A DNA stretch of 61,548 bases, filler included. It is 10 parts of 10 records of this genome, joined end to end, with 100 filler letters (N's around TTAATTAATTAA, not from the genome) between each part and the next. Parts side by side here need not be neighbours in the genome. Positions count along the whole stretch, not along the records: positions 43,116 to 56,633 come from SRR7504441_15340; 9 more parts are not named here. One strand, 5' to 3'. Position 1 is the stretch's first letter. Each line of letters begins with the position of its first letter. Under the pieces are notes generated by a model. The model did not search any database. It worked only from the letters and a program-made list of their open reading frames with translations, and was not told where the DNA came from. Below, in pieces: positions 6,781 to 61,310 of the stretch. The translations under genes and the position numbers were made by a program.

Positions 6781-6880
6781 NNNNNNNNNNNNNNNNNNNN
6801 NNNNNNNNNNNNNNNNNNNNNNNNTTAATTAATTAANNNNNNNNNNNNNNNNNNNNNNNNNNNNNNNNNNNNNNNNNNNN
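6781..6880. other. Artificial contig linker
   Basis: 44 N + TTAATTAATTAA + 44 N. Confidence 0.99.
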
Positions 6881-10141: not shown

Positions 10142-10241
10142 NNNNNNNNNNNNNNNNNNNNNNNNNNNNNNNNNNNNNNNNNNNNTTAATTAATTAANNN
10201 NNNNNNNNNNNNNNNNNNNNNNNNNNNNNNNNNNNNNNNNN
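10142..10241. other. Artificial contig linker
   Basis: N/TTAATTAATTAA/N. Confidence 0.99.
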
Positions 10242-13431: not shown

Positions 13432-13531
13432 NNNNNNNNNNNNNNNNNNNNNNNNNNNNNNNNNNNNNNNNNNNNTTAATTAATTAANNNNNNNNNNNNN
13501 NNNNNNNNNNNNNNNNNNNNNNNNNNNNNNN
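13432..13531. other. Artificial contig linker
   Basis: N/TTAATTAATTAA/N. Confidence 0.99.
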
Positions 13532-20443: not shown

Positions 20444-20543
20444 NNNNNNNNNNNNNNNNNNNNNNNNNNNNNNNNNNNNNNNNNNNNTTAATTAATTAAN
20501 NNNNNNNNNNNNNNNNNNNNNNNNNNNNNNNNNNNNNNNNNNN
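20444..20543. other. Artificial contig linker
   Basis: N/TTAATTAATTAA/N. Confidence 0.99.
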
Positions 20544-29457: not shown

Positions 29458-29557
29458 NNNNNNNNNNNNNNNNNNNNNNNNNNNNNNNNNNNNNNNNNNN
29501 NTTAATTAATTAANNNNNNNNNNNNNNNNNNNNNNNNNNNNNNNNNNNNNNNNNNNN
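29458..29557. other. Artificial contig linker
   Basis: N/TTAATTAATTAA/N. Confidence 0.99.
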
Positions 29558-30832: not shown

Positions 30833-31843
30833 TCAAGCCTTGTCTTGCTCATTGTAGTATCCGAGCACAACGTCCACATCGCGCGGCGAGCCCACAATCA
30901 CCGGGCAGCGCTCATGGATGTCCGTCGGAACCAGCTCGAGGATTCTATGGAACTTGCCCTTGAACATCCCGGTCGATGCCACCCCGCCGCACTCCTCCAC
31001 GATCAGCGCCATCGGGAATCCCTCATACAGCACTCGCAGCTTGCCGTTCTTGCTCTTAGCGTCCGCAGGGTACATGAAAATCCCTCCGTACAGCAGCGTC
31101 CTGTGCACGTCGGCCACCATCGAGCCGACGTAGCGGGCCGAGTACGAATTGCTCCGAAAGAACTCGACCGACCGCAAGAACGGCGTGTCCCACTTGGAGC
31201 TGTTGCCCTCGTTGCACGAGTAGATCTTCTTGCCGCCGCCCTCGGGAAGCTTCATGTTCTCAAAGTGGATGAACTCGCCCACACTCTGATCGAGCGTGAA
31301 CCTGTGCACGCCCTGGCCCTTGAAGCAGAGCACCAGCTCGGTGGCGGCTCCATACATGCAGTAGCCGGCCGCCACGATGTCGTCCCCGGTCCGCAGAATA
31401 TCTTCGGGCGCGGGCGGCCCAGCGGCAGTCTTCCGATACACTGCGAATATGGTGCCGGTGCTCACGTTACAGTCGATGTTGGACGATCCATCCAGTGGAT
31501 CGAACGCCACGCAGAAAGATCCCTGCTTCTCCGGCGGGACGATGATCGGGTGCTCGTTCTCCTCCGAGACAAGCACCGCACAGGTCCCGCTGTTCCGGAG
31601 CGCGTTGACGAAGATGTCGTTGCTGAGCACGTCCAGCTTCTTCTGGTCGTCCCCCGTGGCGTTCTGGTCGCCGGCCATCCCGAGCAGCCCGGCGATCCCA
31701 GCGTGCGCGCAGGCGCGCGAGGTGGCCTTGCACGCGAGCGAGAGGGTGCCCATCAGGATGGTGAGCTCCTTGTCTCCGGTGAGGTCCATCAGGAACCGGC
31801 TCAGTGTTAGGAAGTTGGACGCGCTCTCGAGTTGGGCCTGCAT
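30833..31843 (-). CDS. FBP: Fructose-1,6-bisphosphatase class 1, intronless
   Basis: GDDQKKLDVLSN, LVSEE, FDPLDGSSNIDCN, RYVGSMVADVHRTL, GKLRVLYE. Confidence 0.97.
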   Translation of the reverse strand: MQAQLESASNFLTLSRFLMDLTGDKELTILMGTLSLACKATSRACAHAGIAGLLGMAGDQNATGDDQKKLDVLSNDIFVNALRNSGTCAVLVSEENEHPIIVPPEKQGSFCVAFDPLDGSSNIDCNVSTGTIFAVYRKTAAGPPAPEDILRTGDDIVAAGYCMYGAATELVLCFKGQGVHRFTLDQSVGEFIHFENMKLPEGGGKKIYSCNEGNSSKWDTPFLRSVEFFRSNSYSARYVGSMVADVHRTLLYGGIFMYPADAKSKNGKLRVLYEGFPMALIVEECGGVASTGMFKGKFHRILELVPTDIHERCPVIVGSPRDVDVVLGYYNEQDKA

Positions 31844-32081
31844 TGTCGAGGGGAGCTTTGGCACTCTCGAAGCGTTCCCAAAATCCGTTGCATGCCTTTG
31901 AGTGACTGAGTCCAGCAAAGGCGCAGAGGGGGCCTAATTAGGGCCTAATAAGGGCCCGGAGAGGGAGCTACATGTAGTCAGCATGCTAGCTGCGTCCCTC
32001 CTGCGCTGTAACCCTCTCATACGTGTGTATAATCAGCCTACCCAGGTAATAGATAGTCTAGCTTTATTTTATGATCAAGTG

Positions 32082-34310: not shown

Positions 34311-35168
34311 TTAGTCTCCCGGCACATTGCCGCGCTCATCTGAAGGACTACATGTAATGCTCGTAATGCTCACATCTAGCGGCCATTGAATACTATGCAG
34401 CGCCTTAGCCAGCCGCCGGTACTCCTCCAGCCGCTCTTCCTCGGGGATCACCGCCCGCCCGCTCGGAGATGTGCAAACCCACACAGCGCAGCGGCCACTG
34501 TCATAAGGCCAGCCCGGCGGCAGCAGCTCCTGCTGGCCTGCCTTCACCCGTTTGAGTGGAGGGTCAAACAGGTGACCGAACTGGCGCTTGCCCACGAACA
34601 GCACCAGCCGCGGCGGAGCCCCGGCCCGGCGCGCGTGCCCGGCCAGCCGTCTGTAGAACTCGGGCCGGGCCCGGAGCATCTGGCGGCGCCCGAACTGCTG
34701 GGCGTCGCTCCCCGGCACCTGCACCCAGCTCTGGCAAGACGGGCCACCGAGGGCCACCGTGAGCACGTCGGTTATGCCGATCCCGAGCTCGCCGGCCATC
34801 AGGTTGGCGATTTGGTGCCGATCGGCCTGGGGTCGCCAATCGGGTGGGAGCAGCCCGGCTGCGCGGATTGTGGGCCAGAATCGGTTGGAAGGGTTGGAGT
34901 AGGAGGTGCCCGAGGCCCAGCTGTGCTCAGAAGGGTTGTGTCCAACCAGCAGCAGCCGGAGGGGCAGCTCTGGGGCTTCGGCCGGCCGCTTGGCCTCGAA
35001 TTCGACGCCGGAGACTGTGGTGAACCTCTCGCGCCACCCGGTCTCCGGCGAAACGAAAGCGCCGCGGACCGGGCTGGCGGGCCTGGGCCGCTTGGCTGGC
35101 CTGGCCTGGCTGGGCTCCTGGGCCGACCCGGCCTCACGCGGGCAGCGGAAGGCCTCCCAGTCGATCAT
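34311..35168 (-). CDS. MUG/TDG-family DNA glycosylase (in-frame intron 34719-34757)
   Basis: LLVGHNPS, YSNPSNRFW, GIGITD, FVGK, TSPSGR. Confidence 0.88.
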   Translation of the reverse strand: MIDWEAFRCPREAGSAQEPSQARPAKRPRPASPVRGAFVSPETGWRERFTTVSGVEFEAKRPAEAPELPLRLLLVGHNPSEHSWASGTSYSNPSNRFWPTIRAAGLLPPDWRPQADRHQIANLMAGELGIGITDVLTVALGGPSCQSWVQVPGSDAQQFGRRQMLRARPEFYRRLAGHARRAGAPPRLVLFVGKRQFGHLFDPPLKRVKAGQQELLPPGWPYDSGRCAVWVCTSPSGRAVIPEEERLEEYRRLAKALHSIQWPLDVSITSITCSPSDERGNVPGD

Positions 35169-35386: not shown

Positions 35387-35486
35387 NNNNNNNNNNNNNN
35401 NNNNNNNNNNNNNNNNNNNNNNNNNNNNNNTTAATTAATTAANNNNNNNNNNNNNNNNNNNNNNNNNNNNNNNNNNNNNNNNNNNN
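35387..35486. other. Artificial contig linker
   Basis: N/TTAATTAATTAA/N. Confidence 0.99.
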
Positions 35487-38995: not shown

Positions 38996-39095
38996 NNNNN
39001 NNNNNNNNNNNNNNNNNNNNNNNNNNNNNNNNNNNNNNNTTAATTAATTAANNNNNNNNNNNNNNNNNNNNNNNNNNNNNNNNNNNNNNNNNNNN
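38996..39095. other. Artificial contig linker
   Basis: N/TTAATTAATTAA/N. Confidence 0.99.
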
Positions 39096-43015: not shown

Positions 43016-43115
43016 NNNNNNNNNNNNNNNNNNNNNNNNNNNNNNNNNNNNNNNNNNNNTTAATTAATTAANNNNNNNNNNNNNNNNNNNNNNNNNNNNN
43101 NNNNNNNNNNNNNNN
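43016..43115. other. Artificial contig linker
   Basis: N/TTAATTAATTAA/N. Confidence 0.99.
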
Positions 43116-43434
43116 GTTTCTTCAGAAAACTCAACTTAAGAACCTAGACTCTACAATCGTACTTGTAAAATTAATACTGGTAGTCTGGTACAATCGTAGG
43201 GGTCCCTAGTACGTGGTAGGTCGAAACGAAGACAGTCATACGACTGTTACGACTGTACCGGCATAGTCTCAATGTCAGTAGATCTAGCGTCATGTATACC
43301 GACCACGGTAAAGTTACTAAAGTAGTAAAGCCGTAAAGCCAATGACATTGTATTTGTTATAAAAATGGTCGCGAGGCTAGCGTTGGATCAGATTGCAGGT
43401 AAGCATCATCCCCGGTGTGAGTCACAGTTCACAT

Positions 43435-44821
43435 TCACGGGCCGCCCCAACAACACTCAAAGCAAGGGAACGGTTTGTTTTGGACGACAAAGCCGTGATT
43501 GGGCAAAGCGTCGACCCCATGCTCGTACCATGCTTGGAATGCACTCAAGGGAGTTAGATTGCCGAGACCATATCCGGACAACGAACCTGTCAGTAGCCCG
43601 CAATGCCGATAGCACGAGACTAGGAACACAGCGTGCGGTGCCTTGACTACTGCTTTGATGGAGTCTTCGATGAAGTCACCAAACTGGTTGACTGAGGTGC
43701 GGTTGCAGTGCTTCCAGAACTGCGCAACACAGTAATTATGACAATGGCCGCCTTCCAAGATACCTTCAGCATGTGGTAATCACTGCAATCGTAGTACTGG
43801 CTGTCACCATAATGGCCTGGGGCCATGCTCGCGTCGTATTTAGAGTTGACAATGAACATGGGGGTCTTGATGTACTTGATCATGTCCTCGGCGAACAAAC
43901 ACTTGTCTCCGAGTGCCTCGGTGCAATCGCGGTCGAGCGAGCCCGAAGCGTTGATCATGTCATACATGCCCTGCATGGTCATAATTTGGTCAACTCACTA
44001 AGCTTAATGATCTACTATTGGTGTACAGGGCATACCTGCATCCTGCTATGGTAGTCCGGCTTGCCATCACGTGTGTAGTCACCGCTCAGAAACCAGCCCG
44101 AGTCAGGCAGGCCCCGGACCTTGGCCCAGGGCACCTGCGCTGCATACCAGTCGATGTGGAAGAAGGTGGCCGCCCCGCCCGCAGAACAGCCAGCCACCAC
44201 CATATCAGTCGCCTTGTCGAGCCCTGCAGACTGAAGGAGCGAGGCGATCACAGCATGTCGGATGCGCGACCCTTTAAAGTAGAGGGCTTCGCCCGACCCA
44301 AGGGTGGTGGTGTTGTCTCCCGAAAAGCTCCCACCATCACAGTAGGGCAGATAGACGTAGTTCCTGCGCAACACAGCAATTATGACAATGGCCGCTCAGC
44401 AAGAGACCAATCGTAGAACTGCGGATTGAGCGCTTTGTCCCGGGTGAAGTGGTTTGGGGTCCCTGGAATCCGATCCGCCCGGTCTGAGACAGTGTTGAGG
44501 TCCAGCTCCTGTTTGTATGATTTGCTCGAACCTGTCCCGCCGATCAGCAGCCGGGCCGGCGCGATCGTCACCCAGGCTGGTGCCCGCACGCTCTTTACAT
44601 TCTTCGGGCGTCTGACACCAGCCACCTCCCTGGTGGTGTAGCAGGAATTTCGTGGCCGCAGCGCCGGGTGACAAGTAGTAGGTACCTGGACTGCCGTCCA
44701 AGCACAGTGCGTCCTGCTGCTGGTGCAGGCTGACCAATTTGGACGGGGTGCGCTGATGCGCTCCTCCCAGCGCAAACGGCAGCCACACCCACAACGCCGC
44801 CTGTACGGCGCTCTGCGTCAT
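43435..44821 (-). CDS. Secreted pectin acetylesterase/Notum-family carboxylesterase (4 introns)
   Basis: Signal peptide, [52 protein letters not shown], CYRHC. Confidence 0.93.
43720..43763 (-). repeat. 44-nt intron, copy B of a duplicated intron pair
   Basis: gtatcttggaaggcggccattgtcataattactgtgttgcgcag. Confidence 0.9.
44364..44407 (-). repeat. 44-nt intron, copy A of a duplicated intron pair
   Basis: gtctcttgctgagcggccattgtcataattgctgtgttgcgcag; 38/44 identical to copy B. Confidence 0.9.
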
Positions 44822-45131
44822 GCCTGGCAGTTGCTTGCTATCCGTTTATTTTTCTGGCGTAGACTAAGCTTACCTGGCACGTTTACTCAGTGTGCACCGT
44901 ACATTACAGTGCACCGTAGTCTCCACGTAGGGCTTGCCTTCCCAGGGCTAGTAGCAGTGGGCCCGTGTGGTTCTCTACATTATCTTAATTAAGATTATTT
45001 GGTTGTCACCAACCGCCGAACCGCAGCCGCAACCGTCATGTTTTAACGGAAGCCCCCTAGGATTCATACCATGCCTTGTGACATTCGGACTCTATGTACA
45101 TGCAACAAAGCAAGCGTCTCTCTGTCCTATT

Positions 45132-47132
45132 CTACCAGCGCCCTCCACGTGAACCCGTTCGCCTGTGCCCTCTTCCACTCTTCCAGTTCTCCTTCTCCTT
45201 CTGCAGCTGCTGCTGAGAACGGGCAACCCCGTCATATCCTTGCTTGAGCTCTGCAATTTCGGTCTGCAACACCCACAGAATTTCAGCTGAGTGTGCCTTA
45301 AGAGCCCAGAATCTATCAGATTGGCTGAAACATAGCTCAGCATCAAGCACTGACCTTAGCATTAATCAATTCCATTTCGAGCATCTCAATGTACTCCTTC
45401 CCTTGGCCCCTTTCAGACCTGAAAGGGCCAATGCTGGTCATATTTTGAGTCAAAAGTGGCACCTTGATGGTTTTGAGATCCCTCGCCTCTCTCCCGCACA
45501 GCTGACATCCAGTTGTGCAGCTAATGCCGTCACCTGCGACCATCAGTGAGCAGATGCAACTCTCATCACGAATGCGTGTCACCTTCGTGCGAAGCTCCTC
45601 ATTCTCGTCCTGCAGTTTCTGCATTTCTTCGTTGTTCGCGTCCGAGCCTGCAGTCTCCTGGATAGAATGAGTCAGAGATCCGGCAGATAAAGCTGGACAG
45701 CTCACCTGCAATAATTTAGTCCGGTGCTCCAGCTGATCGTGGGCTGTTCGAGCATCGTTCTCAGCATACTCCAGCTGCCCAGCCAACTCAAGCCGCTGGT
45801 GCAGCTTGAACGCACCCGCTGCTTAAGAACCTCTATCTGCATCTTTAAGTCCTCTACTTCATCGTTGGTGTATCCGCCTGAACAGTCGTCTCTGTCACCG
45901 AGGAAGCAGACAGCAGCTGCGTCGGCGATCTATTAGGGCGATATCGCACCGATATCATCATTTGCTTCCTGCGAGCTCTCATTCCTCTGGCTGCGTTCCC
46001 TCCGTCTAGGTATTCCTGTGACAACGACGGACTCAGCTGATGCTTGCAGCCTTTCAGCATTCTATCCGGGTGCCTCTAGTAACCTGCACGATTTATTTCT
46101 CCACGGGATCCCACGTCATTTTGCGCGTTCATGCTTTGGGACCGTGATCGTCGATGCCTTGGTGCGGAAGAGTCTCGCTTCCTCGCACTGCCACTGCTGC
46201 CTGAGCCCGAGCGCTGCAACACGGATCAGCAGCCGGCATTGCATGCAGCCAAACCGTGCGGACATCAGCTTGCGCCGGTGCAGACGCACTCATGTTATAG
46301 CTGAAAACCACCGCACAGACTCAGTGGCTGGAGCGGCAGAATGGCGTGAGGGAGGCACTCTAAGTCTTCCGCATCCGACATTTCCGACATTTCATCAACA
46401 ATCATCTCCGACATCTCCGACGGCTCGTCAGCAGATGCAGATCTATTCTTGGGCTGGTCGATCCATGTGGGCTTGATTGAAACCTGACGACAAGTAACGC
46501 GAGGACCGCAGAGAGACTTACCGAGAGGCCAACTTGAGGCTTGCCGGACCTTCTGGCGTCTAGCAATAACCTGACCTGTCCAGTGCAGCCTCATCCGCGG
46601 TACGCAGCACTAGTGCAGTGTGTCAGAATGCTGGGCCCGACCTTTTTGACGGATCCATCCCTAGTGATGAGCGGCGTCAGGTCGTGGTCGCCTTTGGCGA
46701 TCGTGGTGTCTCGGTTGGAATCCTGTCACCGGCTCGCTGTTGGCCTGGCTGCGCTGCAGCACCTTGATTTTGAGGCTCAGACGCTTCTCTTTGAAGTTGT
46801 CTTGACTGTCGGCGTACATGGTCACCTCGAACCGGATGGCCTGGTCCCAGCAAGCGTTGCCTTTGCCTGCCAATCCGGTGACCGCCGCACACTCGGCTGT
46901 GCTCACCTGTGCACATGGAGTGGTCGGTCCTCCCCACCTCCCTGCCGTTGCGCGCCAGAAAGACATACGCCCGGTCGGGCACCGGTGCCGCCATGGTATC
47001 GCTCGAATGGATCGTGATCGAAACATTGCAGCGCTGGCTCCTGCACGCCCCAGCCTTAGCGCGGTTGGCAGGGACCGGCGCGGGGGAGGGGCTGCTGGGC
47101 TGCACTCACGTGGAGCTGAACATCGACTTCAT
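45132..47132 (-). CDS. NT-type C2 domain (EEIG1/EHBP1-like) + coiled-coil protein, many introns
   Basis: GNACWDQAIRFEVTMYADSQDNFKEKRLSLKIK; C-terminal coiled coil YIEMLEMELINAK. Confidence 0.7.
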
Positions 47133-47323
47133 GCTTGGCGAGGGCTGCCGGTCGCAGGCGCCGCTGCCCTGCTCCTGGAGCAGCAGGCAGAGTGCTCGGA
47201 GCTGTTGTTTCTTTTCAACGACTCGGATCGTCAACGGAAGCACTGCAGCTGTGCATGCGCTGGAATCAGTGGCATGGGCATGTGCAGATGAGACTCAGGG
47301 TGTGAGGAGCGGCGCCAAGGACA

Positions 47324-50300
47324 ATGAGCGGCGACAGGCTGCATGCCAATGAGCTCTTCTCGGTGCGCGCCCGCCCAGCCGAGTGACCGCGAGCCCCCGC
47401 CGCTTGGCAGGCCGTGGACACCCCCGGAGCCCCAGCAGAGGCCGCCGCTGCGAATAGGAACGTATTCGGAGGTCGGAAGTGGAAGCGGGCCAATGGCTCG
47501 GACGACTCGAAAAAGGACGGCGGCAAGAGTGTCTTCGGGGGGCGGTGGAAGAGAAGCGGGGGGGCGAAGCCAGGTGAGCAGCCCTCTATGTCTGTGTGGC
47601 TTGAGGCGGCCCAGGTGAGGGCGCCCTGGTCAGTGCCGAGGACGCTGTGAGTGATGCAGGATCGGGCTGGGGGCGTAAATCCAAACCAGCGACACCGATA
47701 CCAGGGCTGGAGATTGACGGCTATGGCAACGAGATAGTGCTGCCGGGTGACGATGTTGCAGCGGATGCGATGGCCAAAGAGCTCGATCGAATGGGCGACC
47801 CGCCGTCAAAAGGCAGCACAGCAGTTCACCCATTGGGGGGCAAGGGCTCGCGCGACGTGTTCCGTCAGATGAGTGGGGTGCAAAAGAAGGCGCTTGAGAT
47901 CCTCGGGAAAGAGGCTTACGAGGGGCTCTCGGAGCAGTGGATGACTGTGATGGCTCGCCGTACCCAAGGTGGTGGAGGCTCGGACGGCTACTCACAGCCT
48001 CCGAATCCGCTGGTTCCGAGTGGAATTATTGGAAAAAAGTTGTGTCAAGTGAGCGGCGGTCTCAACCATATGGTTGTTTGCGGTGATGGCGGTGAGGTAT
48101 TTGCTTGCGGTGAGAACAGATACGGCCAATTGGGTATCGCAACTGATGGCATCGGTGAGAAGAGCTCAGCCAAAGCTATCCAATTTCTGAAGGAAAACTT
48201 TGGCAAAAAGAATGCGGCTGGTCAAATTGAGGAATCCGAGGAGATTGAACAGGCTGCTCCTTCCAACATCTTTGCATCCCCGATCCAGATCAAAGGCGGG
48301 CTTGAAGGGAGGCGAGTGTACCATGTTAGCTGTGGGTCGAGCTTCTCAGCAGCGTTGACCGATGCTGGTGAAATCTTCACTTGGGGTAATAATGAGCATG
48401 GCCAACTAGGCCATGGCGACAGGATCAGGCGGAATGATCCAACCCCCATTGCATCGCTGCAGTTTACTGCTCAGCGAGCTGGTGTTGTGGTGGTGGACTT
48501 GAACTGTGGGGCTGATCACATGGCAGCCATCAGCTTTTCAAAAGAAGTAATGACGTGGGGTCTCGGCAATTTTGGAAACCTTGGACATGGCACATCGTAC
48601 AGCTACATGGAACCGAGAATCGTGGAAGCTTTGCAGAAAGACAATGTACAACAAGTGAGTTGTGGTACGCGACACACTATGGCAGTGAATGCGGTTGGAG
48701 AGGTATACACATGGGGATTTGGAGGTGATGGCCGGCTTGGTCATGGTGACAGCTCAGGGTTTGCGACCCCGCAGCTTTTGGAGCTCCTCAAGGGGAAGGA
48801 TGGGCTCACTGTGATCACCACAGTTGGAGCTGGAGATTGTCATTCGGCTGCTCTCACTAGCAAAGGAGAGGTGTATACCTGGGGCTCAGGCAGTTACTAC
48901 AAACTAGGGCACGGCGACATTACCGATAGGCAGTCACCGCGACTTGTCAAGCAGCTCGTAGGAAAGAACATTGTGTCTCTCTCCTGTGGTTTCTACCATA
49001 CGGCTGCTCTGACATCAAATGGCGTCCTCTTCACTTGGGGAGGTGGGATTTACGGAAAACTGGGCCACCCTTCTACCGATAATGTAGGCTATCCCACACC
49101 TGTCAAGGCTCTCTCTGGGAAGCGCGTGAACAGTGTTGTCGCCACGCCAATATCAACACTCATTGTATCAGAGACAGGAGACCTATTTACCTGTGGCTAT
49201 GGCAGTAAAGGCGCTTTGGGACATGGTGAACAAACTCACGAAGAGCAGCCTAAACGAGTTGAAGCAATACGAGGGGCCAGAGTGGCCATGTATACAGTGC
49301 TGAAATCAGAAATGATAGCCCGCAGTAAGCAGCTAGCGTCTGGACAGAGTTCTGCACAAAGCAACAACGCAGAGACTTCTAGTGCAGCTCAAGGCGATAA
49401 AAAAGACAAACAGATCCGCTATCTGACAACAGGCCCATTCCATTCATTTGCAACATCGGAAACTGGGCTTGTTTACGGGTGGGGCTCCGGACAGTACAGC
49501 AAGATTGGTGTAGGGGATGATGTAGATGTGCTGCTCCCAAGGCAAATTGGTGGATCTCTGGAGCGGAAATTGATCACCATGGTTGCCTGTGGTGAGAAGC
49601 ACTCGGTTGCTGTGACTGGTGATGGGAACGAGGTATACGTCTGGGGGTGTGAGGGTGATGGTCGCCTTGGCCTTGGAAAGCCAGACATTGTAGATCCGGA
49701 CGTTCCCCCAGGTGTGCATATTACATGTAGCTGTATGGCACTGTGTAAAAGTTGCCATCAACACCTTGTGATGATATGGTCTGACTGGGTCCTGACTGTG
49801 GAATGTTGCAGGTGAGGTCCAGTTTCCAGAGCAATTGAACATGTTACAAGGTCAACGAGTGACAGAGCTCAGTGTTGGACATGCACATACAATTGTAGCT
49901 ACTGAGAACATGGATGTATATACTTGGGGCTGCGGCTCTCACGGGCGGCTTGGGCACGGAAATTCAAATAATTGTTGGGATCCAAAACTAGTGCAGACTT
50001 TCAGCGGTAATACCATAAAAAAAGTTGCTGCTGGTGGAAAGCACACCATGTTGATCCGCACCCTCCCAGCAAGAATTGGCAGTGGCACATATAATGAGGT
50101 GCTGAGCTGGGGTAGTGGCTGGTGGTATCGCTTGGGTCATGGAGATCAAGACAACTGCCTTGTTCCTAAGGATATAAGTGACTTGAGTGGTAAGATGATC
50201 ATCGAAATCGCAGCAGGTACAGCTCATAGTGCTGCAGTCTCCTCCACTGGTGATGTGTACACCTGGGGCTATGGAGCAAATGGCCGCCTTGGGCATGATG

Positions 50301-52990
50301 ACTACCACAACCAGGAGGAGCCACGGCTTGTCAAGTCTTTGCGAGGTGTTGATCGCAAGGTGATTGTCAAAGTAGCTTGTGGCGATTGCCACACGGTTGC
50401 GCTTACTGATGATGGAAAGATCATGTCTTGGGGGAAGGCGAAGTATGGCCAGCTTGGAACTGACACAACAAATGAATGCCAGAAACCTTGCTCGGTGTCA
50501 CATATGATTCAAATGCAGGAGGGGCAGGCCAAGCCTGTGACGTTGAGGGGAAAGTTCGAATCTGTTGCCTGTGGGATGAACCATACAGTGGCGCTTACAA
50601 CGAAGGGGGATGTATATACATGGGGAATGGGCGGGGGTGGACGTCTCGGACACGGTGACTTGAATGACTGTCTCCAGCCACGTTGTGTAGACACCCTGAC
50701 GATGCAAAGCAGCGAGGAAGCGAGTGACCTGGAAAAGGCAGATACTATGGGAAACCCAGAGATAGCGACGGGCATTACACTGGAGACCCTTCAAAACATG
50801 CTCAAGGCAGAGAGCCACGACACGGAAGACATCGTCAAAGCAGACAGAGATCGCCTGAGTACCTTGCGGCATCAAACTGACATGGAGAAGCACCATAATG
50901 CAACCCTTGAGCGCGAGACCAGAGCGATTGATAAAAAGATCAAGCTGCTTGTGAAGAATAAAAAGGAAGTACAGAATAGACTACGCAAGAATCAGTTGAA
51001 CACCCAAACAAGCCCAATATCTACGATGCGTGAAGACTATGAAAACTTATTTTTCCTCCTTCAAGCCAACCCAAAATACTTAGCATTGCTTACATCTGCT
51101 GTCCCAGAAGAAGCTGAAGCCATCGTGAAAGCCTTTACAGCAATTTATGGAAATCAGACGGACCCAAGAGAGGAGCACCTTGTCTTGAAATTCTTCACCG
51201 AATCCATGGCTGACGAGTTCAAAAAGGCCGATCGGATACAGGTGGTACTTGGGGGATCCAGTTCTATTGTTCGCACAATGAACGCGTATCTCAGGCGGGA
51301 ATCAAACAGGCTCAAATTGATCAGCATTCTTGGTGCGCCAATGAGCAATCTTGTCAACAACAGAAACTCTTTTGAGGTCAATCCCTTGAAGACGTACTTT
51401 GAAGTGTGTGCAGCCAATAATGTCATCGCTGATTCCACAGCGACTACAGCACAAGCATTGCAGGATCCGTCTGTAGTGGAAGCTCTCACTTTGAGGGTTC
51501 AAACGCTTCGTGACACAGTGAAGCAATTTTTGGATGCAGTCATTAATGCCCTCGACGAGATCCCATTTGGTGTACGATGGCTGTGTAAGCAGGTATTAGA
51601 TCAAGCTCAAATTCAGTTCGAAGGGGCAGAGAAACAGCAGAAGCTTTGTCTAATTGGTAGTATAATCTTCTTGCACTGGGTCAATCCAGCCGTATGCTTT
51701 CCTGAGACAATCAGGTTGGTTGATCAGCCGATTGACCCGCCTCTGCGTATGCATTTGGTTTTGGTTACCAAGGTGCTTCACAACATTGTTCATGGTACCA
51801 TCTTCAGCGACGCGCAACCCTACATGTCTTATATAAACGATTTCATCCACACGTCCTCGGATCGACTGACTACATTCTTGGAGCAGCTTGTTGATGTAGA
51901 AGATTTATCTCTTCACGACCAGAACACGCAGTATGCTACCAAGCTTCAGCAAGAGGCTCCAGTGATTCGTATTTTTACGAATGATGTCTTCACAACGCAC
52001 AGGCTCTTGTATGAGTGTCTGGCAAGTGTTGCTCCCACGCTGGATGATCCTATTCGCGTGATCCTCAAAGACCTGGGTGCACCTCCAGCTATGATGGCAC
52101 CTGATCAAAACAAAGGTATTGAATTGAAGCTTATAAGTCGTTTTGATGCTCCTCCATCAGACGATAGCGATGATTCGCAGTCACTGGGAGCAATGCTTCA
52201 AGACACTCGATGGCAGCTGATGCGAGTATTGCGAAGCATCAAGCCAATAAGTGCGACAAAACGAAAGTATTGTATTGATGGAGAAAACTTGACAATCCTT
52301 CTGTCCAAAGCGAAGCAGGATGCAATTGAAGAGGAAAACTACCTCTTGGCAGACAAGATCAAAGTATTGCAAGTCAAGTTACATCAGTTGGCATTGAGGG
52401 ACGTTTACCACCAAGCTGAATTGGTGTTAGACAGTGCTCTTGAAATTCAGAATAGAAATGCAGAGAATGCCAAGATAGCGCAGGAGCAGTTGACTCTACA
52501 AGAGACAATCGACACGGCTCGATCGAGAAGAATATATCTCATCACTGCAATATCAGCCTACCGTGAGACACTGGCGAATGCGAGGGCAACTGCGTTCACA
52601 CCAGCGCCCGTTCAGCTTGGCGTGTTCGACAGGCTTGCGAATATCAGCACACTGCAACGCGAGTGCACCGTCGGACCATTTCGTTACTCTTATGTGCAAC
52701 TGGAGAGTGATGGTGTGGTCATCCAATCTGACTTTCCTGAGCAGTTCCGGCCACATTTGACTTTCTTGTTCTCCTCGGCAACTCCTGGTGTTGTCGTCAT
52801 TGCAGTTGTTGCCAAGCAGCATGCTGGACCTGGACTGGGATCTCGCGATTCTTATTTGTTTTCTGCAACCATCTTATTGGAAGATTTGCTCATGTCAAAA
52901 GAGAAAAAGCACTCAGAGCTCGATCTCACCGAAGTGATCTTTGAGCTGAGTCTCCTTCTCGACATATTAAACGAGCACTTCTTCACTTGA
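47324..52990 (+). CDS. Large RCC1-repeat + IQGAP-type RasGAP/RasGAP_C protein (about 1800 aa, 3 introns)
   Basis: About 14 RCC1 repeats (VSCG..H...GEVYTWG.G..GRLGHGD), IDKKIKLLVKN, YENLFFLLQANPKYLA, REEHLVL, IPFGVRWLCK, FLHWVNPAV, GPFRYSYVQLESDGVV. Confidence 0.9.
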
Positions 52991-53643
52991 TTATGTTGCA
53001 TTCAGGCTTCATTTCATGCAAAACATCTTTGCCTTCGAATTCTCAATTAGTGCACTTGCAAATTTTGTACATAGTTGCTTCATATGTAAGCTCATGATGT
53101 GGTCCAACTACAAGTAGCTGGTTGAACTCCAGTGTAATATCGGTGACTTGGTGACCCCATCTACAACTACTGGTAGACAACATCGAAACTGAAAATTAAT
53201 CAAACTGGCCGCCTGAAGACTGGTTACAATAGTACCTAAACTGAGACCAGCTTAAAATACTATAGTTACTCGTACAGCTGAATAAATACGTAAAATTATT
53301 ACGTCGTTACGTTTGTGAGTCAGGACTACATGTATAACTACATGTACTTGTATGTACAGTAAGTACAATCATGATTGTACCGTAACCTTCGTCAAGGCCC
53401 GACGTGAGGCCCGAAGGCCGAGTCCTAAGTATTCTCAATCATTTTTCATAAATGCTCTTGAGCATTTACCACCATTCTCTTCAATCCTAGTAGAGTCTTA
53501 AACGCTTAAACGCTACAAGCGGCCTACAACTAACAAACGCTTCGTTGCCCTAGGATTATACTAGGATTACAAGTAAAGTCGTACGTACGCAGTACCCAAT
53601 TCGTCTAAAATGATTCTAGCTTCGAGTTGTGTGTTACCACATT

Positions 53644-54429
53644 TCATGCAGTTTGACCCATCGCCTTGGCCCATTTTGACATGGATTGCATCCTGGAAAC
53701 AGGGAGAGGGTCAGCTAGTAGCATGCCCGGCGGTCACGCTAGTTTTGAGAAGTGCTCGAAAGAGACCATCTCATTATCTGGCTCCGGGGCAGGCTCTGTT
53801 GTCAGGATCCCCATTGCTGTCCCCCCTTTGGCACACTAGCAGCCACATGAATAGGTCACCCTGCGTATACTGCTGCTTGCTAATCCAGCCTCGCCGGGTC
53901 AGGTCAAACATCCCAAACATTACCTTGAGATCGGCCTCTGAATAGAGCATCTCCTGCCCAGCCGCTGGCCGCCAGAGCCTTCCTGGCGGGGTACCTCGCC
54001 GGCCTTGATCTTTTTGAGCTGCTCCAGTACGAACTCACGCGGGTTCTCCGGCCGGTGGAATAGGACCGCTGCCGAGAGCCGCTGCGCCCGCTGCTGGCCG
54101 CCCAGCCGCCGGGGTGCCGCACCTGGAGCAGCGCAGGGATCTGCTTGTCAGCCAGGTACTGGCGGCAGATCTCGGCCTGGTCTTCGTACACGTTCACATT
54201 CACCGGCGGCAACGGCTCCTCTTCGACTGCCGGGCCCGGCTCCTCCACCGCGGCCGCCTCCTCCTCAGCCCCCGGCGCTTCGGCTCCCGCCGCGGCTTCC
54301 TCCTCCGCAGCTGCTTCCTCAGCGGGCAGCTCAGCCGCGGCAGCCTCAGGCGCAGGTGCAGCCTCCTCCGCTGTCCCACCCCACGCGTCAGCCCCAAGCG
54401 CCCCCGGCTGAGCGACCTTCTTCGCCCAT
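53644..54429 (-). CDS. EFCAB10-like protein (RIIa/Dpy-30 docking motif + EF-hand) with an Ala/Glu-rich N-terminus (5 introns)
   Basis: QYLADKQIPALLQRLSAAVLFHRPENPREFVLEQL; YSEADLKVMFGMFDLTRRGWISKQQY. Confidence 0.8.
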
Positions 54430-54527
54430 CTTGTCTTCTATTTCCAGAGCCAGTCGAATCATCAAGGTGGAGCTCTCTCAGAAAATCAACCGCCGGACGC
54501 ACGGAACGAGCCCGCGCTAGGCTCATC

Positions 54528-56330
54528 ATGGGAAACGGGCAGACCTCGACTGCCGCGGCCAACCACGAGGTGCCGGTCGGCTGGGCGGCGAGCGAGGCTC
54601 GGGCACAGGCTCTCCGGCTGGCGGTGCGGTACGGTGATTCGGCGAGCGCCCAGATGGCGCTGCTCAAGGGCGCGGACCCGAACACGGCCGATTCGGTGCG
54701 GCCCCGCCCCCGCCTGCGAGCCCAGCCGCGGTCCAGGCCGGGTCCAGCCCGCTGCACATCGCTGCGCTGGTGGGCAGCGTCCCGATTAGCTCGATGCTAC
54801 TCAATTCGCGCGCGGACATGGACGCGGCCAACCGGGACGGCCGGACTGCGCTGCACTGCGCGGCGCACGCGGGTCACGAGAAGGTGTGCCTGGTGCTGCT
54901 CGAGGCTGGGGCCGATCCAAACTCGGTGGACGACTGGGGCGACAAGTGGACCAGCCTGCACTACGGGGCCCGCGGCGGGCACCTCGGGGTGGTGGACATT
55001 CTGCTCGATGCCGGGGCCGAGATAGATGCCACCACCGCGGTGGGCCAGTGCAGCAGCCTGCACGAGGCAGGCCGGGTGGGCTCGATCCCTGTGATCCGCC
55101 AGCTGCTCCGGGAGGGCGCCGATCCGGAGATTCTCAACGCGGAGAACAAGCAATTCCTTGAATGCATCGAGGACGCCGATATTCGGGCCGAGGCTGAGAG
55201 CAGCCTGCAGGAGCTCGGACTGGATCCAGAGGCGACCGGCCGTTGGTCTGCCTGAATTGTGGCTGCAGGTGCGAGAGCGGCGCCAGCTCGAGCAGAAGCG
55301 GCCAGGCTCGATGCTCCGGCGGAGGAACGCGGCCGAGGTCAGTTGGCGAGAACTGGCTGGTGATGCCAACGGTGCGGACAGCGGCAGCGGAACAGCGCCA
55401 CGCCGAACCAACGGCTGTGCTCGGGGATCACCGCCAAGCTCTGGGCGCCGCCAGATTTCGACTTTTCGCTTAATTGCGGAATGCTGGGAGCCAATGCACC
55501 GTCCAACCCGACTAAGCAACCCAGGTGCGTGTGATGTGCGCTCGCTTGAGCCTCGGCCAGTGACCAGGAGGAGTTGTACGTTTCGCGCTCGCCAGCCACC
55601 TCGCCGAGTGAGCCAGGCGCCCAAACTGCTCCAGTGATTGGGTTTGGCAGCTGTACCAGTCAAAGAACCGACTAGTGCCGTGCTAGCCGGCCGAAGAGAC
55701 TCGCTTGCTTCGCTGGGCCAGGTGCAGAGAACCCAAACTAATTGGCACTGCGTGGTGGCTTAGCTTGCTTCATGCCAGGTCTCTGATAGCGATGAAGCCG
55801 CAACTGTGCAAGATCTGGAGGTGGGATACATGTATGTTAACAGTGCCAGCATCTCAACCAGACTATTTGGCAGGATCGATCAGGAGGCGCTGAGGCATGT
55901 CATGATGGAGACAATGCTGCGGAAAACAGCGAGCTTGTCAAAGTGACACTTGAACACGGAATGATGAAAGTTACTCGGGCGTATTCCAAAAGCTCCGCCA
56001 AAATTGGAGATTTGTCAGGTCTCCTGGGTCTCGGTTTGCTATCAGTTCAACCTATTTTGTGTAGGCGATTGCTCGCTCCTATTTGGTATTGATGTGAAGG
56101 ACGTTGCAATTCTTGGCCAAGATGGTTCAGTGGTATGCGTGCCCCCACTGATTTGACTGCTCATATTCCTGAATTCCATTCTGTGATCAATTATGTTTTG
56201 CGAGTGGTAGACAATCGTACAACGGATGGTAAAGTGAGCGGTGGGTGGGGTACAGCTCTCATCATCGCGCAAGTTGCGAGAGGAATTTGGGGACTTATCA
56301 GCAATCAAATTAAGAGTCATCTCCACAGGT
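54528..56330 (+). CDS. Ankyrin-repeat protein, possibly N-myristoylated; 3' exons uncertain
   Basis: MGNGQ start; SPLHIAA, GRTALHCAA, WTSLHYGA, SSLHEAG; the frame appears to continue past 55231 through a GC-AG intron (55232-55268) and further small exons. Confidence 0.75.
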
Positions 56331-56633
56331 ACGTTTGCATCGCCAATGCATGATTACTTTGCACAAGTAATCTCAATCAATCAAAGGCTTTTCATTGCCA
56401 TGATAGATATAATTGGCAGCCACGACACTTAAGGTGGGGATGCAGGTAGCACAAACAAGTCCACACGGTGGTGTGATTGTAGGTGAGCAAACAAATTAAA
56501 GTTTGCATCTCGTGCCTTAGCAAGTAGTTTTTTTTAAAACTCGGGGACAGCTTTTTTTTTTTTGACTCGGAAACAGCTTTATTCTAGTAAAGGTCCCACT
56601 GAGGGACTGGCAACGGAAGAAATGGCCGTTTCT

Positions 56634-56733
56634 NNNNNNNNNNNNNNNNNNNNNNNNNNNNNNNNNNNNNNNNNNNNTTAATTAATTAANNNNNNNNNNN
56701 NNNNNNNNNNNNNNNNNNNNNNNNNNNNNNNNN
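56634..56733. other. Artificial contig linker
   Basis: N/TTAATTAATTAA/N. Confidence 0.99.
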
Positions 56734-56899: not shown

Positions 56900-59800
56900 A
56901 TGTCATCGATCGACGTGCGTGCTGGGCCGCTGGCCCGGGCTCCTTACCCGAGCTGTCTTGTATGCAGAAGATGATGATATCGGGGGTCCGCTCTTTCGGG
57001 GCCGACAACCCGCAGGTGACTGCCCCGTGGGCTGCCGCTGTGGGCTCCCGGGCTCGGGGCGCCAGCCACCAGACGGCAGGTGATCGAGCTGTTCCGGCCA
57101 CTGACCATCATCGTCGGGCACAACGGCGCCGGCAAGACGGTGCGCCCTCTGCCACGTCGGGCGGCTGCAGCTGTGCTGCAGAGCATTATCGAATCACTCA
57201 AGTTCGCGACCACAGGGCTGCTGCCGCCGAACAGCGGGCAGGGCAAGATGTTTGTGAACGACCCCAAACTCGAGCAGGAGACCACCACCAAAGCTCAGAT
57301 CAAGATCAAATTCAAGAGCACCGGTGGGCACCCGATCGTGTGCACTCGGCAGATGGCTGTCACTCAAAAGAAGACTGCGCTGAGCTACAGCGGCGGGGAC
57401 ACGGTGCTGCAGTCGGTCAATGCCGCCAAACAGAAGGTGTGCATCAGCAACCGCGCGCAGGATATCAATGTCAAGATTCCGGAGCTAATGGGCGTCTCTC
57501 GGTCGATCCTCGAGAACGTCGTCTTCTGCCACCAAGAGGATTCGAACTGGCCACTGGCCGACGCCAAGACACTAAAGTCCAAGTTCGACGAGATTTTCGC
57601 CGCGGCGCGCTACACCAAGGCCCTCGAGACGATGCGGAAGCAGACCACGGAGCTTGCTGCGACTCACAAAGGTTTCCTCAAAGAGCTGCAGCTGCTCAGC
57701 GAAAATGCCGAGGTGGCAAGCCGGGCTGGGCCGGGGCTCACAATACGACAGGCGTGCCAGGACGTAAAGAAGAAGATGCGCGAGACTAAAATCAAAATAG
57801 AGAAGAACGAGACGAAGAGGAAGGACATCGGCGAGAAACTGGAGAAGAACATCAAGATCCTGAGCCATGCCGAGGGCCTGGGCGGCAAAGTGCACGAGCT
57901 CAAGACCGCGCTGCAGTATGAGATGCAGAAGCTTAGCCAGTGTAACTCCGAGTTGGAGCGAGAGAAGGCGGCGACCAAGACAGTAGTCAGTGCCTCGATT
58001 GAGAAACTGCAGGAGAAGCTCAACAACATTCAGGTCGAATTCGAAGCCAGTGGGCGGGGCATCGAGGCAGTTGACACAGCGATCGAAAAGGCCGAGCTCG
58101 AGGTGGCCACGATTGAGAGTCAGAAGGACAGTCTGATTGACAAAAAGAGCGTTTTACAGTCTCAGGTTAGTATCTCCAGCCGTCGGAATGCTAACCAGCG
58201 TGGGCCCAGGTGCTAGCGCACGAGAGCAAGACCAGGCAGTGCGGCGAGCTGATTGATTTCCTGGGCAAGAAATATCGGTTGAAGAAGCAGCCGAGCAACA
58301 GCACTCCCAAGCAGAGCTTGACACAGGTCCACCGACAGCTGGATGCTAAGCGCTCTCAGAAAGAAGATGAATTCCAAAACCTCAAGGAGGAGGGCAAAGC
58401 CAAGGTCGAATCTGTGTTTAGTGCGATGAAGGATCAGGAGGCTCAGTGTGGCCAAAACGAGCACTTGCTTGCTGCAAAGACACAAGAGCAGGGCTCACTG
58501 GCTCAGAAGGTGCGCGCAGTGCGGTGTACGAGTGATTTGCTAATCTGCATCTGATTACAGGTGCAGGAGGACGAAGATAAGTGGCGCGAGGCGCAGAAAG
58601 CCCAGGCAGGGTTTGATGATTTGGACAATGCCCAAGCCAAGGCTAAAGAGGCCGAGCAGGCTCTGAACAATTTCAAGAGTCAGGTATTGAATGCTGGATT
58701 GGCTAGCCAGTGTACTAACGCTAGACGAGACCTGAAAGCAGCCATGGCAAAGAAGGAGCGGTGCACTGAGGAGCTGCAAGAGATGACCAAGACTAATGCC
58801 ATGGCGAGGATGAAGGCTGCAGAGCTCAAACAAAAGAAGAAGACACTTTCAGATCTTGAGACCAAGATAAAGGATGATGTTGTCACCATTATTGGGTATG
58901 TTCCAGACTCGAAACATATGCTGCGCAATGTGACTGAGAAAGTGCGTAGCTTTGGCGAGGAGCGGCTTGCAGCGGAGTCGAAGCTGCAGCAGGCAAATGT
59001 GGCTGTTGGCACTCTACAAGGGCAGCATGATGTCACAAGCAAGACACTCAAGTCGTTGCAGCAGACTGTAGAGAGTACCAAGGCTCAACTGGCTGCTATG
59101 GATGCCACCAACAAACATGATCTCGACGACGCGATTGCTGAAGCCAAGGATCAGGTCGAGGCAGAAAGCAAGAATAAGAAGATGTTCCTAGATTTTATCA
59201 CTGTTGCAGGTTCAATGAAGAAGCAGATGAAAAAGAACAAAATCTGCAAGATGTGCGGCAGAGATTGTGGTCCAAAAGAAATCCAATATCTGGATGAGCA
59301 GGTGGCAATGTGCGAAAGCCAGCTATCAGGTATTATGGACCAGACCGATTCGAAATTGAGTGAGTGTACTGAGAGACTCAAGCAGCTCGAGGATCTGATG
59401 CCTGTGGCACAAAAGCTTGACATGGACCAGACTGAATTGACCCGGCTTAAGAAGGAGGAGCGCGAGGTACAAAAGAACAAGGAGAAGGAGTCACAGAGCA
59501 TTCCAGACCTTGAAGATGATTTGAACAATGCGCAAGACTCAGAACAGCGCGCGATTGATCTTAAAAAGCACGCAGAGCGAATGAACGCACTGTTGAACGA
59601 GATTGCTGCGGACGAAGGTGTGCTGGCAAGAAGTGGTGACAGCGGAGCCAGTCGTGAAGAGCAGCTCACTCGAGAGGTGGATGAGTGCAAGGTGCTAATC
59701 AAATCTTTGGAACAGAGTGTGGAAGAGATGGAGAGAAATCAAAAAGAGGAGTCTCACCGCCTAGAGCAGCTCTCAAAGGCCTTCTCGACTGCACAGCAAA

Positions 59801-61310
59801 ACGCCTCACAGGTGGAAATTCACCAGGCGAATTCTAGTTCTCTGAAAGACAGACTTAGCAGCAACAAAGCCCTACAAACCTCGCTGTCCACAGAAATTGA
59901 AAAACTACGATCGAAAACGATGCCTCTTAAGAAGGAACATGCAACGCTACAGAGGTCAGCTTCTATTTTTTAGCTGCCGTACTCACACCGCTTGTGTGTA
60001 CAGGGACTACAGTGAGATTAAGTCTACCTCGGAGGAGACTGAGCGGAAGGAAAGCGAGCAACTTGCTGATCTGCGTAGCGACGTACGTAAGTGTGCAGAG
60101 ATGAAGAAGGAGCTTGAAGGGTTTTCCAATAACCCAGCTGACGATGTCAAGGAACTCGAGGAGCAGCTAGAGGAGATCAACAAAAGGCAGGAAGGTCTCT
60201 GGGCGGTGGTGAATTCAAACAAGAAGCAGCGGGACGAGCAGAATGGAAAGAAGGTCGAGATGCAGGATAAGATGCAAATGCTTCGCGATAATATTCGACT
60301 GCAGGTGTGCCACTGATTTGCTTTCTCGTGTGTCTGACTCGTAAGCGTGTGATTCAGGATAAATTGAAAGTCGGGAAGGCAGTGGAGCAAACAATCGAAA
60401 AGATGAAGAAAGAGATCGAGGTTTAGCAACATTCTTCCAGTGCACTGAGCTGCTACTGACAGGCCCGCAAAGCTAATCTTGCCGCCTGCCTCCAATCAGG
60501 GGTTACAATCAACTCACTGCAAGAGTCTGTTGATAGTCTGCGAGCAACAATCAACCGGATTGAGGGTGAGAGTGTTGAGTGCAAGAACCAGCTCAAGCAG
60601 CATGAGGAGATACTCAAGAAGCCAACATTTCGCGATATCGACGAAAGAGTGATGCAGAAAAACGTAGAGACTAAGACCACACAGATGGCTACTCGTGACC
60701 TGCAGCGTTACCATTCGGCTTTGGACAAGGCGTTGATGAGGTACCACTCCATGAAGATGGCCGAGATCAACAAGACGCTAACGAGCCTCTGGCAGACAAC
60801 TTATCAAGGGCATGACATTGATACAGTGCAGCTCCGGCACGATGACGAGTCCAAGTCAGCCACTGCGAAGCGAAACTACAATTACCGGTTGGTGTTGGTC
60901 AAGAACAACATCGAGATGGATATGCGTGGGAGGTGCAGTGCTGGGCAGAAGGTGCTAGCAGGACTTATCCTTCGGCTGGCTTTGGCCGAAACGTTCGGGA
61001 CTCAATGTGGCGTGCTCGCATTGGACGAGCCTACGACAAACCTTGATAGTGCGAACATCGAGGCTTTTGCTGAATCGTTGTGTCGTATCATCGACGATAG
61101 GCAAGGCCTGACGTTGATTGCAGAGCACTGACGATTAGGCTGGACAGGTCGCGACAGCACAACTTCCAGCTCATAGTAATCACCCATGACGAAGACTTTG
61201 TTGCCACTCTCAGCAAGTATCAATGCCATGCTGACCACTTTTATCGGGTCAAGAAGGATGAAAACCACCATAGCGTAATCGAGCAGTGTGCCATGATTGA
61301 CCTTGGCTAG
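56900..61310 (+). CDS. RAD50: DNA repair protein RAD50, complete, 9-10 short introns
   Basis: [15 protein letters not shown], Walker [20 protein letters not shown], zinc hook [35 protein letters not shown]; last intron 61101-61147 is GC-AG. Confidence 0.97.

Follow-up and report, generated by a model that had tools for sequence, protein, structure and literature searches.

Architecture of the locus

The DNA analyzed here (henceforth the window) is 61,548 nt long and consists of about ten contigs chained end to end, such that genes on either side of a linker need not adjoin in the genome. Near the start of the contig that occupies positions 43116-56633 sits a gene of the pectin acetylesterase (PAE) family, and it is two of the introns of this gene – the second and the fourth – that are the subject of this work: both are 44 nt long and their sequences are nearly the same. 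Read on the minus strand, the gene runs from a start codon at 44821 to a stop codon at 43435-43437 and is made up as follows:

43435..44821, minus strand: PAE-family (pectin acetylesterase / Notum-like) gene, start to stop codon, five exons, 397 aa, Pfam PF03283
44572..44821, minus strand: exon 1, ending in phase 1; RNA contig X8 spans 44570-44819
44532..44571, minus strand: intron 1, 40 nt, GT..AG, 75% GC; the frame requires its removal, and an RNA joint is present in X8
44408..44531, minus strand: exon 2, ending in phase 2, within the Trp codon of NPQFYDW
44364..44407, minus strand: intron 2, 44 nt, GT..AG, 52% GC, phase 2 (splits the Trp codon)
44036..44363, minus strand: exon 3, 109 codons plus 1 nt
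43971..44035, minus strand: intron 3, 65 nt, 40% GC, its sequence unrelated to introns 2 and 4
43764..43970, minus strand: exon 4, 69 codons
43720..43763, minus strand: intron 4, 44 nt, GT..AG, 48% GC, phase 0, between ...DYHMLK and FWKHC...
43435..43719, minus strand: exon 5, including the stop codon 43435-43437

By profile match the host gene belongs to the pectin acetylesterase family PF03283. Matches to this profile were returned for exon 1 (E 2.6e-16), exon 3 (3.6e-27) and exon 4 (2e-08), with bit scores of 60.1, 95.8 and 34.2, respectively, against a cut-off of 26.6; the scan took in exons 1, 3, 4 and 5 and left out exon 2, and the translation of exon 5 gave no Pfam match. The spliced protein of 397 aa aligns over its full length with 20 relatives, in line with the pectin acetylesterase gene of the original prediction. 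The four introns (40, 44, 65 and 44 nt) have GT..AG borders in all instances, and the coding sequence is 58% GC.

Likeness of introns 2 and 4

The two 44-nt introns agree at 38 of their 44 positions, the differences falling at intron positions 3, 9, 10, 11, 12 and 31. On the main diagonal the match is exact over positions 13-30 and 32-44, and among the first 12 positions seven are the same. The last 32 nt of the two introns form a core that is identical at 31 of 32 positions:

44364..44395, minus strand: 32-nt 3′ core of intron 2, 31/32 to the core of intron 4
43720..43751, minus strand: 32-nt 3′ core of intron 4, 31/32 to the core of intron 2

Equal length and this degree of identity had been claimed beforehand, and both were confirmed by a script count and by BLASTN of the window against itself, in which the intron pair is the only non-self match at E<=1e-3 (E 8e-8). 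A repeat search returned the same segments (43720-43764 and 44364-44408) as a 45-nt direct repeat of 87% identity. The 32-nt core has exactly two matches in the window at up to three mismatches; two matches were obtained in 0 of 100 shuffles. Since introns 1 and 3 are unrelated to the pair, the likeness is not accounted for by splice signals that the introns have in common. The length of the two copies falls between those of the gene's other introns (40 and 65 nt).

The gene model confirms that the two introns differ in phase (phase 2 for intron 2, phase 0 for intron 4). Since the phases differ, since the adjoining exons encode different conserved segments of the PAE family, and since no collinear exon match flanks the introns (exon matches are found only off the diagonal, at -22 and +55), the pair is not the product of an exon duplication, just as the original prediction held. 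Its statement that the flanking exons are unrelated stands as far as collinear matches go, but has to be qualified: a 14-mer identical at 13 of 14 positions lies upstream of both introns, at different offsets.

Scans for repeats at the intron ends agree with the earlier observation that neither intron carries a terminal inverted repeat (TIR) or a target-site duplication (TSD). Intron 2 and intron 4 are not flanked by in-register direct repeats of at least 3 nt, no inverted 8-mer matching at 7 of 8 positions is present at their ends, and no inverted repeat of 14 nt or more was found in the region; the junctions of the two introns are likewise free of filler and of microhomology longer than 1 nt. 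The predicted folding of introns 2 and 4 is no better than that of shuffled sequences (z +0.50 and +1.42), and a search of the window against Rfam returned no family. Creation by tandem duplication of an exon segment containing AGGT does not fit the two introns, which share at most a 6-mer with the adjoining exons. The 6-mer TGCTGA, common to intron 2 and the end of exon 4, was dropped from consideration: some six such matches are expected by chance, on a hand estimate.

Splicing of the two introns

Contigs of two RNA runs, and of two runs labelled 'DNA?', were aligned to positions 43300-44900. Intron 4, exactly 43720-43763, is absent from a 912-nt RNA contig of run X1, with 206 nt on the shorter side of the joint; the same contig skips the 65 nt of intron 3, where seven letters fit either side. 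Intron 2 is skipped, from 44364 to 44407 and at GT..AG, by a 155-nt RNA contig of X1. Intron 1 (40 nt) is skipped by a 350-nt RNA contig of X8, a run from another study, with a shorter side of 100 nt. Introns 2 and 4 are thus removed in RNA at the very GT..AG borders that had been predicted: both are real, spliced introns in sense orientation.

An assembly artefact, or sequence that is never spliced, might be suspected given that the window is a contig chain of a metagenome-style assembly with nine linkers, and that no independent DNA contig over intron 4 is found among the contigs aligned to 43300-44900. Against this, a 244-nt contig of X2 (a 'DNA?' run) holds intron 2 in unspliced form, covering 44197-44440 with 0 differences; RNA contigs from two studies skip introns at GT..AG, and the spliced frame fits the PAE family; moreover, the copies differ at six positions, as those of a collapsed repeat would not. 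We regard an artefact as exceedingly improbable. The RNA joints, combined with the reading frame and the family alignment, speak against misassembly and against a failure to splice, and for practical purposes exclude both.

Search for further copies

No third copy was found in the window, either with blastn-short or with nhmmer, or at relaxed thresholds, and scans of the window for the shared 5′ 8-mer or for the 3′ 9-12-mer motif returned no further candidate intron. The best extra matches are one of 16/17 at 34490-34506 and an 11-mer at 34378-34388. Both were rejected as copies and attributed to chance: they are read as lying in a minus-strand coding frame of 289 aa with a UDG domain.

Beyond the window, the exact 24-nt core pattern had 0 matches in JGI metagenome contigs. 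A 19-nt pattern had eight matches in prokaryote genomes and one in viral contigs; these were taken to be probable chance matches, the prokaryotes being unrelated and about four matches being expected in 596 Gb (our own estimate). A search with the core of the supplementary spreadsheet of a published introner survey (PMC9860276), which seems to be a spreadsheet without sequences, gave no match.

Age of the two intron positions

The search for relatives was seeded with an alignment of 15 of the 20 relatives (all but P0013, P0014, P0018, P0019 and P0020). It yielded 41 metagenomic loci coding for PAE relatives, none of them more than 50% identical to the window protein. When compared with the spliced protein by tblastn, 37 of the 41 span the site of intron 2 in one unbroken segment and nine span that of intron 4. 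Some of these distant loci may be transcripts, or bacterial, and we say only that neither intron position appears to be widely shared among them.

One of the distant loci (L018, 2560-3260) has introns close to, although not at, the positions of introns 1 and 2 of the window gene. One begins a few codons after LGSS; the other, a phase-1 intron of about 350 nt, is found 8 nt downstream from where intron 2 sits.

Two closer relatives bear on the order of events. The first, P0141, is a protein of 143 aa that is 77% identical to the window protein over 126 aa, and its frame runs uninterrupted through the intron-2 site. After the residues DY it continues with 15 non-homologous residues and then a stop, as in an unspliced genomic frame, and this tail suggests that P0141 derives from unspliced DNA. 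The break seems to fall five codons before the intron-3 site. The second, P0142 (76 aa), covers exon 4 with 78% identity and closes with ...DYQVLK-VTLVK-stop. It departs from the family sequence exactly at the intron-4 site, where five extra codons follow, the first of them Val (GTN), as would be expected if an intron began there.

If P0141 and P0142 are both genomic DNA of one close relative, then the position of intron 4 predates the split from that relative, in which intron 2 is absent; and from these two circumstances it would follow that intron 2 is the younger copy, made from intron 4. The two frames thus suggest that the position of intron 4 is the older and that intron 2 is the recent copy. 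The original prediction had looked to orthologues to tell gain from conversion, and the comparison goes part of the way: the intron-2 site is unbroken in one relative and the intron-4 site is a frame break in the other, at the level of protein.

Exonic motifs near the introns

Two short matches link the surroundings of intron 2 to those of intron 4:

44408..44421, minus strand: 14-mer CAGTTCTACGATTG, the last 14 nt of exon 2, coding for QFYDW, directly 5′ of intron 2
43786..43799, minus strand: 14-mer CAGTACTACGATTG, exonic, coding for QYYDC, ending 22 nt 5′ of intron 4
44414-44422, minus strand: 9-mer CGCAGTTCT, in exon 2
43716-43724, minus strand: 9-mer CGCAGTTCT, at the junction of intron 4 and exon 5

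The 14-mers CAGTTCTACGATTG and CAGTACTACGATTG are identical at 13 of 14 positions and are the only pair of 14-mers in the coding sequence with one mismatch or fewer. In codon shuffles, a pair of this kind within 40 nt upstream of both junctions arose in 3 of 20000. Their counterparts in the relatives read QFHDW in P0141 and QYYDC in P0142; since the relatives share the coded motifs, much of the likeness of the 14-mers would predate any copying. At its second site the 9-mer straddles the junction, with 5 nt at the end of intron 4 and 4 nt at the start of exon 5. By chance, two regions of 164 nt would be expected to share about 0.09 9-mers in this way, on a rough estimate of our own.

Priming of the copying by the 14-mer, be it through strand invasion from either locus or through template switching by a reverse transcriptase, was rejected on paper, because it predicts that the 22 nt separating the 14-mer from intron 4 be copied or lost, and neither is seen. 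Those 22 nt code for residues common to the relatives. It is possible, as speculation, that the 14-mer aided the targeting or pairing of donor and target. Alternatively, and no less speculatively, it may act as an exonic splicing enhancer, in which case a copy of an intron with weak splice sites would survive only near the motif.

Origin of the pair

We favor a same-gene intron duplication, to which we give slightly better than an even chance, with intron 4 to intron 2 probably the direction. One spliceosomal intron of the PAE gene would have been copied to another place in that gene, uninterrupted until then; intron 4 would probably occupy the older position and intron 2 be the daughter. We lean to an intragenic copy because the two copies lie in one gene, with none elsewhere in 61.5 kb; because their similarity is bounded by the splice sites and comes without TSD or TIR; and because one relative is uninterrupted at the intron-2 site and another breaks at the intron-4 site. 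As to the route, precise borders, sense orientation and the lack of TSD and TIR fit intron transposition, and from these we infer three steps: the excised intron would reverse-splice into another site of the same transcript, the resulting RNA would be reverse-transcribed, and the cDNA would recombine with the PAE gene. A narrower version, in which a recent transposition within the transcript from intron 4 to intron 2 depended, for landing or for survival, on the shared upstream exon motif of 14 nt, we consider unlikely.

Several observations weigh against a same-gene duplication, as does a haptophyte intron family of similar length that is taken up below with its rivals. The differences between the copies are clustered: five of the six fall in the first 12 nt, four of them consecutively (hypergeometric P=0.0037), and uniform neutral drift of a clean copy does not predict clustering at the 5′ end. 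The 14-mer, standing 0 nt from one intron and 22 nt from the other, fits no simple model of reverse splicing or of strand invasion. The RNA joint for intron 2 has a shorter side of only 26 nt, below the guide of 31 nt. The relatives P0141 and P0142 are known as proteins only, and different organisms, or partly spliced transcripts, could mimic the pattern that they form; the direction of copying is one that we infer from it. Finally, 'only two copies' means two within the 61.5-kb window, both in one gene of 1.39 kb, and the window was chosen because of the intron pair, such that a rare double landing by a dispersed family is conceivable.

Such a family – introners or introner-like elements of about 44 nt, of which both copies landed independently, or one took the place of an older intron where intron 4 now is – is a possibility that we take seriously but think doubtful. 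The similarity of introns 2 and 4 extends over their full length and goes no further than the splice sites, as introner screens require, and the survey of Gozashti et al. 2022 reports many families without TSD and TIR, lengths of 30-654 nt and a bias towards aquatic organisms (PMC9860276). Among the families it lists from haptophyte genomes assembled from metagenomes are short ones, and one of these, in marine haptophytes, averages 43.5 nt with 50% GC and 13 copies (PMC9860276 Supplementary Table 6); the window itself looks haptophyte-like by its FBPase gene, 68-74% identical to haptophyte sequences. Against a dispersed family, the window holds no third copy, the 24-nt core is absent from the JGI metagenome contigs, and the best extra match (16/17) lies in the coding frame with the UDG domain. 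A large family should have given more copies in the window, and for a small one it is unlikely that two would land independently at a distance of 644 bp and none in the remaining 60 kb. Nor would the insertion of a DNA transposon exactly fill a site at which a relative seems to have an intron.

Exchange at the DNA level is also to be weighed. The copy may have been made during repair of a double-strand break, by template switching or synthesis-dependent annealing from a donor intron 644 bp away and with the help of the 14-mer. The 14-mer pair stands as close to both copies, and is as rare in shuffles, as described above; CGCAGTTCT, in the exon just before intron 2, recurs at the 3′ junction of intron 4; and the run of four differences at positions 9-12 resembles a complex event and not a set of point changes. 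Yet priming from the 14-mer should have copied or deleted the 22 nt before intron 4, neither of which is seen; its motifs occur in the relatives too (QFHDW in P0141, QYYDC in P0142), so that the likeness in part predates any event; and there is no filler and no junction microhomology longer than 1 nt. We judge this route improbable. Gene conversion that made two old, independently gained introns alike seems to us more improbable still. The 3′ 32 nt, nearly perfect where the 5′ 12 nt have diverged further, might represent a conversion tract, and the two sites are only 644 bp apart; but conversion needs collinear homology to start, and the flanks share none, their only matches being off the diagonal; it would have to end exactly at both splice sites and yield equal lengths as well; and the nearest relative appears to be without intron 2. 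Of the readings offered with the original prediction, then, the intragenic copy is favored by the one-gene pair and by the frames of the relatives, and conversion is disfavored by the lack of collinear homology in the flanks.

Intron 3

Intron 3 has repeats of its own. A 7-nt direct repeat, ATGCAGG, lies in register at both of its borders, and an 8-nt inverted repeat is formed by ATGCCCTG at intron positions 3-10 and CAGGGCAT across the 3′ junction. These are of the type of signature that would be expected of an insertion with target-site duplication or of the repair of a staggered break; part of the direct repeat (CAGG) is expected from the splice-site consensus alone. Intron gain by repair of double-strand breaks, with short flanking direct repeats, is listed in a review of intron gain (PMC3443670), and the signature predicted by this model matches intron 3, with its 7-nt in-register repeat; introns 2 and 4, by contrast, are without such a repeat. 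Intron 3 also holds, at 43978-43986, the 9-mer AATTATGAC, the reverse complement of GTCATAATT, which is part of the core common to introns 2 and 4. Base pairing between the two in the pre-mRNA is conceivable, but chance alone would be expected to give a 9-mer match of this quality (E 6.3).

Host organism and remainder of the window

The remaining features of the window to which we refer are:

6781-6880, 10142-10241, 13432-13531, 20444-20543, 29458-29557, 35387-35486, 38996-39095, 43016-43115 and 56634-56733: nine identical 100-nt linkers (44 N, TTAATTAATTAA, 44 N)
30836-31933, minus strand: FBPase gene
47605-52987, plus strand: RCC1-repeat plus RasGAP protein
14112-17870, plus strand: RRP5-like S1-domain protein
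57020-61128, plus strand: RAD50/SbcC-like ATPase

The FBPase gene lies on a contig other than that of the PAE gene. Its top named relatives are the haptophytes mentioned above and its top unnamed relatives reach 83% identity; a search of the ESM Atlas with FBPase returned no usable taxonomy. On the basis of this one gene, on a different contig, the host is probably a haptophyte-like marine protist. The public runs that share words with the PAE gene are, in all instances, marine or seawater metagenomes or metatranscriptomes; of the 24 runs listed, four were aligned to the gene, and small shares of words were not taken as evidence of habitat or distribution.

The RCC1-repeat plus RasGAP, RRP5-like and RAD50/SbcC-like genes appear to consist of long open exons that are seldom interrupted. 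Beside them the PAE gene seems rich in introns, with four in 1.39 kb.

Relation to known cases of intron gain

Near-identical introns within one gene have been described before. In Oikopleura dioica (Denoeud et al. 2010) four near-identical pairs, each within one gene, were reported among about 75,000 introns (as described in PMC3879977 and PMC4122922). Like introns 2 and 4, those are near-identical spliceosomal introns of the same gene, and there they were read as the outcome of reverse splicing into the same transcript. The present pair differs in that its host is probably a haptophyte-like marine protist and not a tunicate, in that the introns are only 44 nt long, and in that an exonic 14-mer lies upstream of both. 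The comparison is with the descriptions given in the citing papers.

In fungi, 82 introns have been classed as 'same gene duplications' (SGD); half of them lack duplicated exons, and these were interpreted as having transposed within one transcript (Collemare et al. 2013, PMC3609843); the same paper cites, from another study, three such same-gene introns in C. elegans. Like the two copies seen here in 61.5 kb, the fungal SGD are near-identical introns within single genes and, according to that account, have folding energies like those of ordinary introns. They differ from the present pair in coming from another kingdom; here, moreover, both copies have transcript support and relatives give a hint of direction. 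Support for intron transposition is, in the account of one review, indirect only (PMC3443670).

The introner survey of Gozashti et al. 2022 describes families in 175 genomes, with median lengths between 30 and 654 nt, and counts as a family at least four copies in unrelated genes; it finds introners to be 6.5 times more likely in aquatic organisms (PMC9860276). With the introners of Micromonas, Aureococcus, fungi and marine protists the present introns have in common similarity over the whole intron, efficient splicing, sense orientation, a marine setting and a length within range. In contrast to the four or more copies of a family, two are seen in 61.5 kb, both in one gene, and they come with no TSD, TIR or stable fold. 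The fungal type of introner-like element (ILE) is longer than regular introns and has a stable predicted fold, and introns 2 and 4 show neither.

The pair is, in short, a tidy example, probably of a known and rare kind, and not a new phenomenon: only the flank motif and the clustered differences go beyond published cases. The origin of new spliceosomal introns is nonetheless debated and clear within-gene copies are few. The pair is notable for its very small introns (44 nt), for the splicing of both copies in environmental RNA, and for relatives that hint at which was the parent. Should it prove part of a dispersed family, it would add one more short introner family of a marine protist, of a kind already catalogued. 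If motif-dependent transposition were true, it would be a natural gain of the reverse-splicing type in which an element of exonic context matters. As a within-gene copy, the pair could become a dated example of intron gain with known direction.

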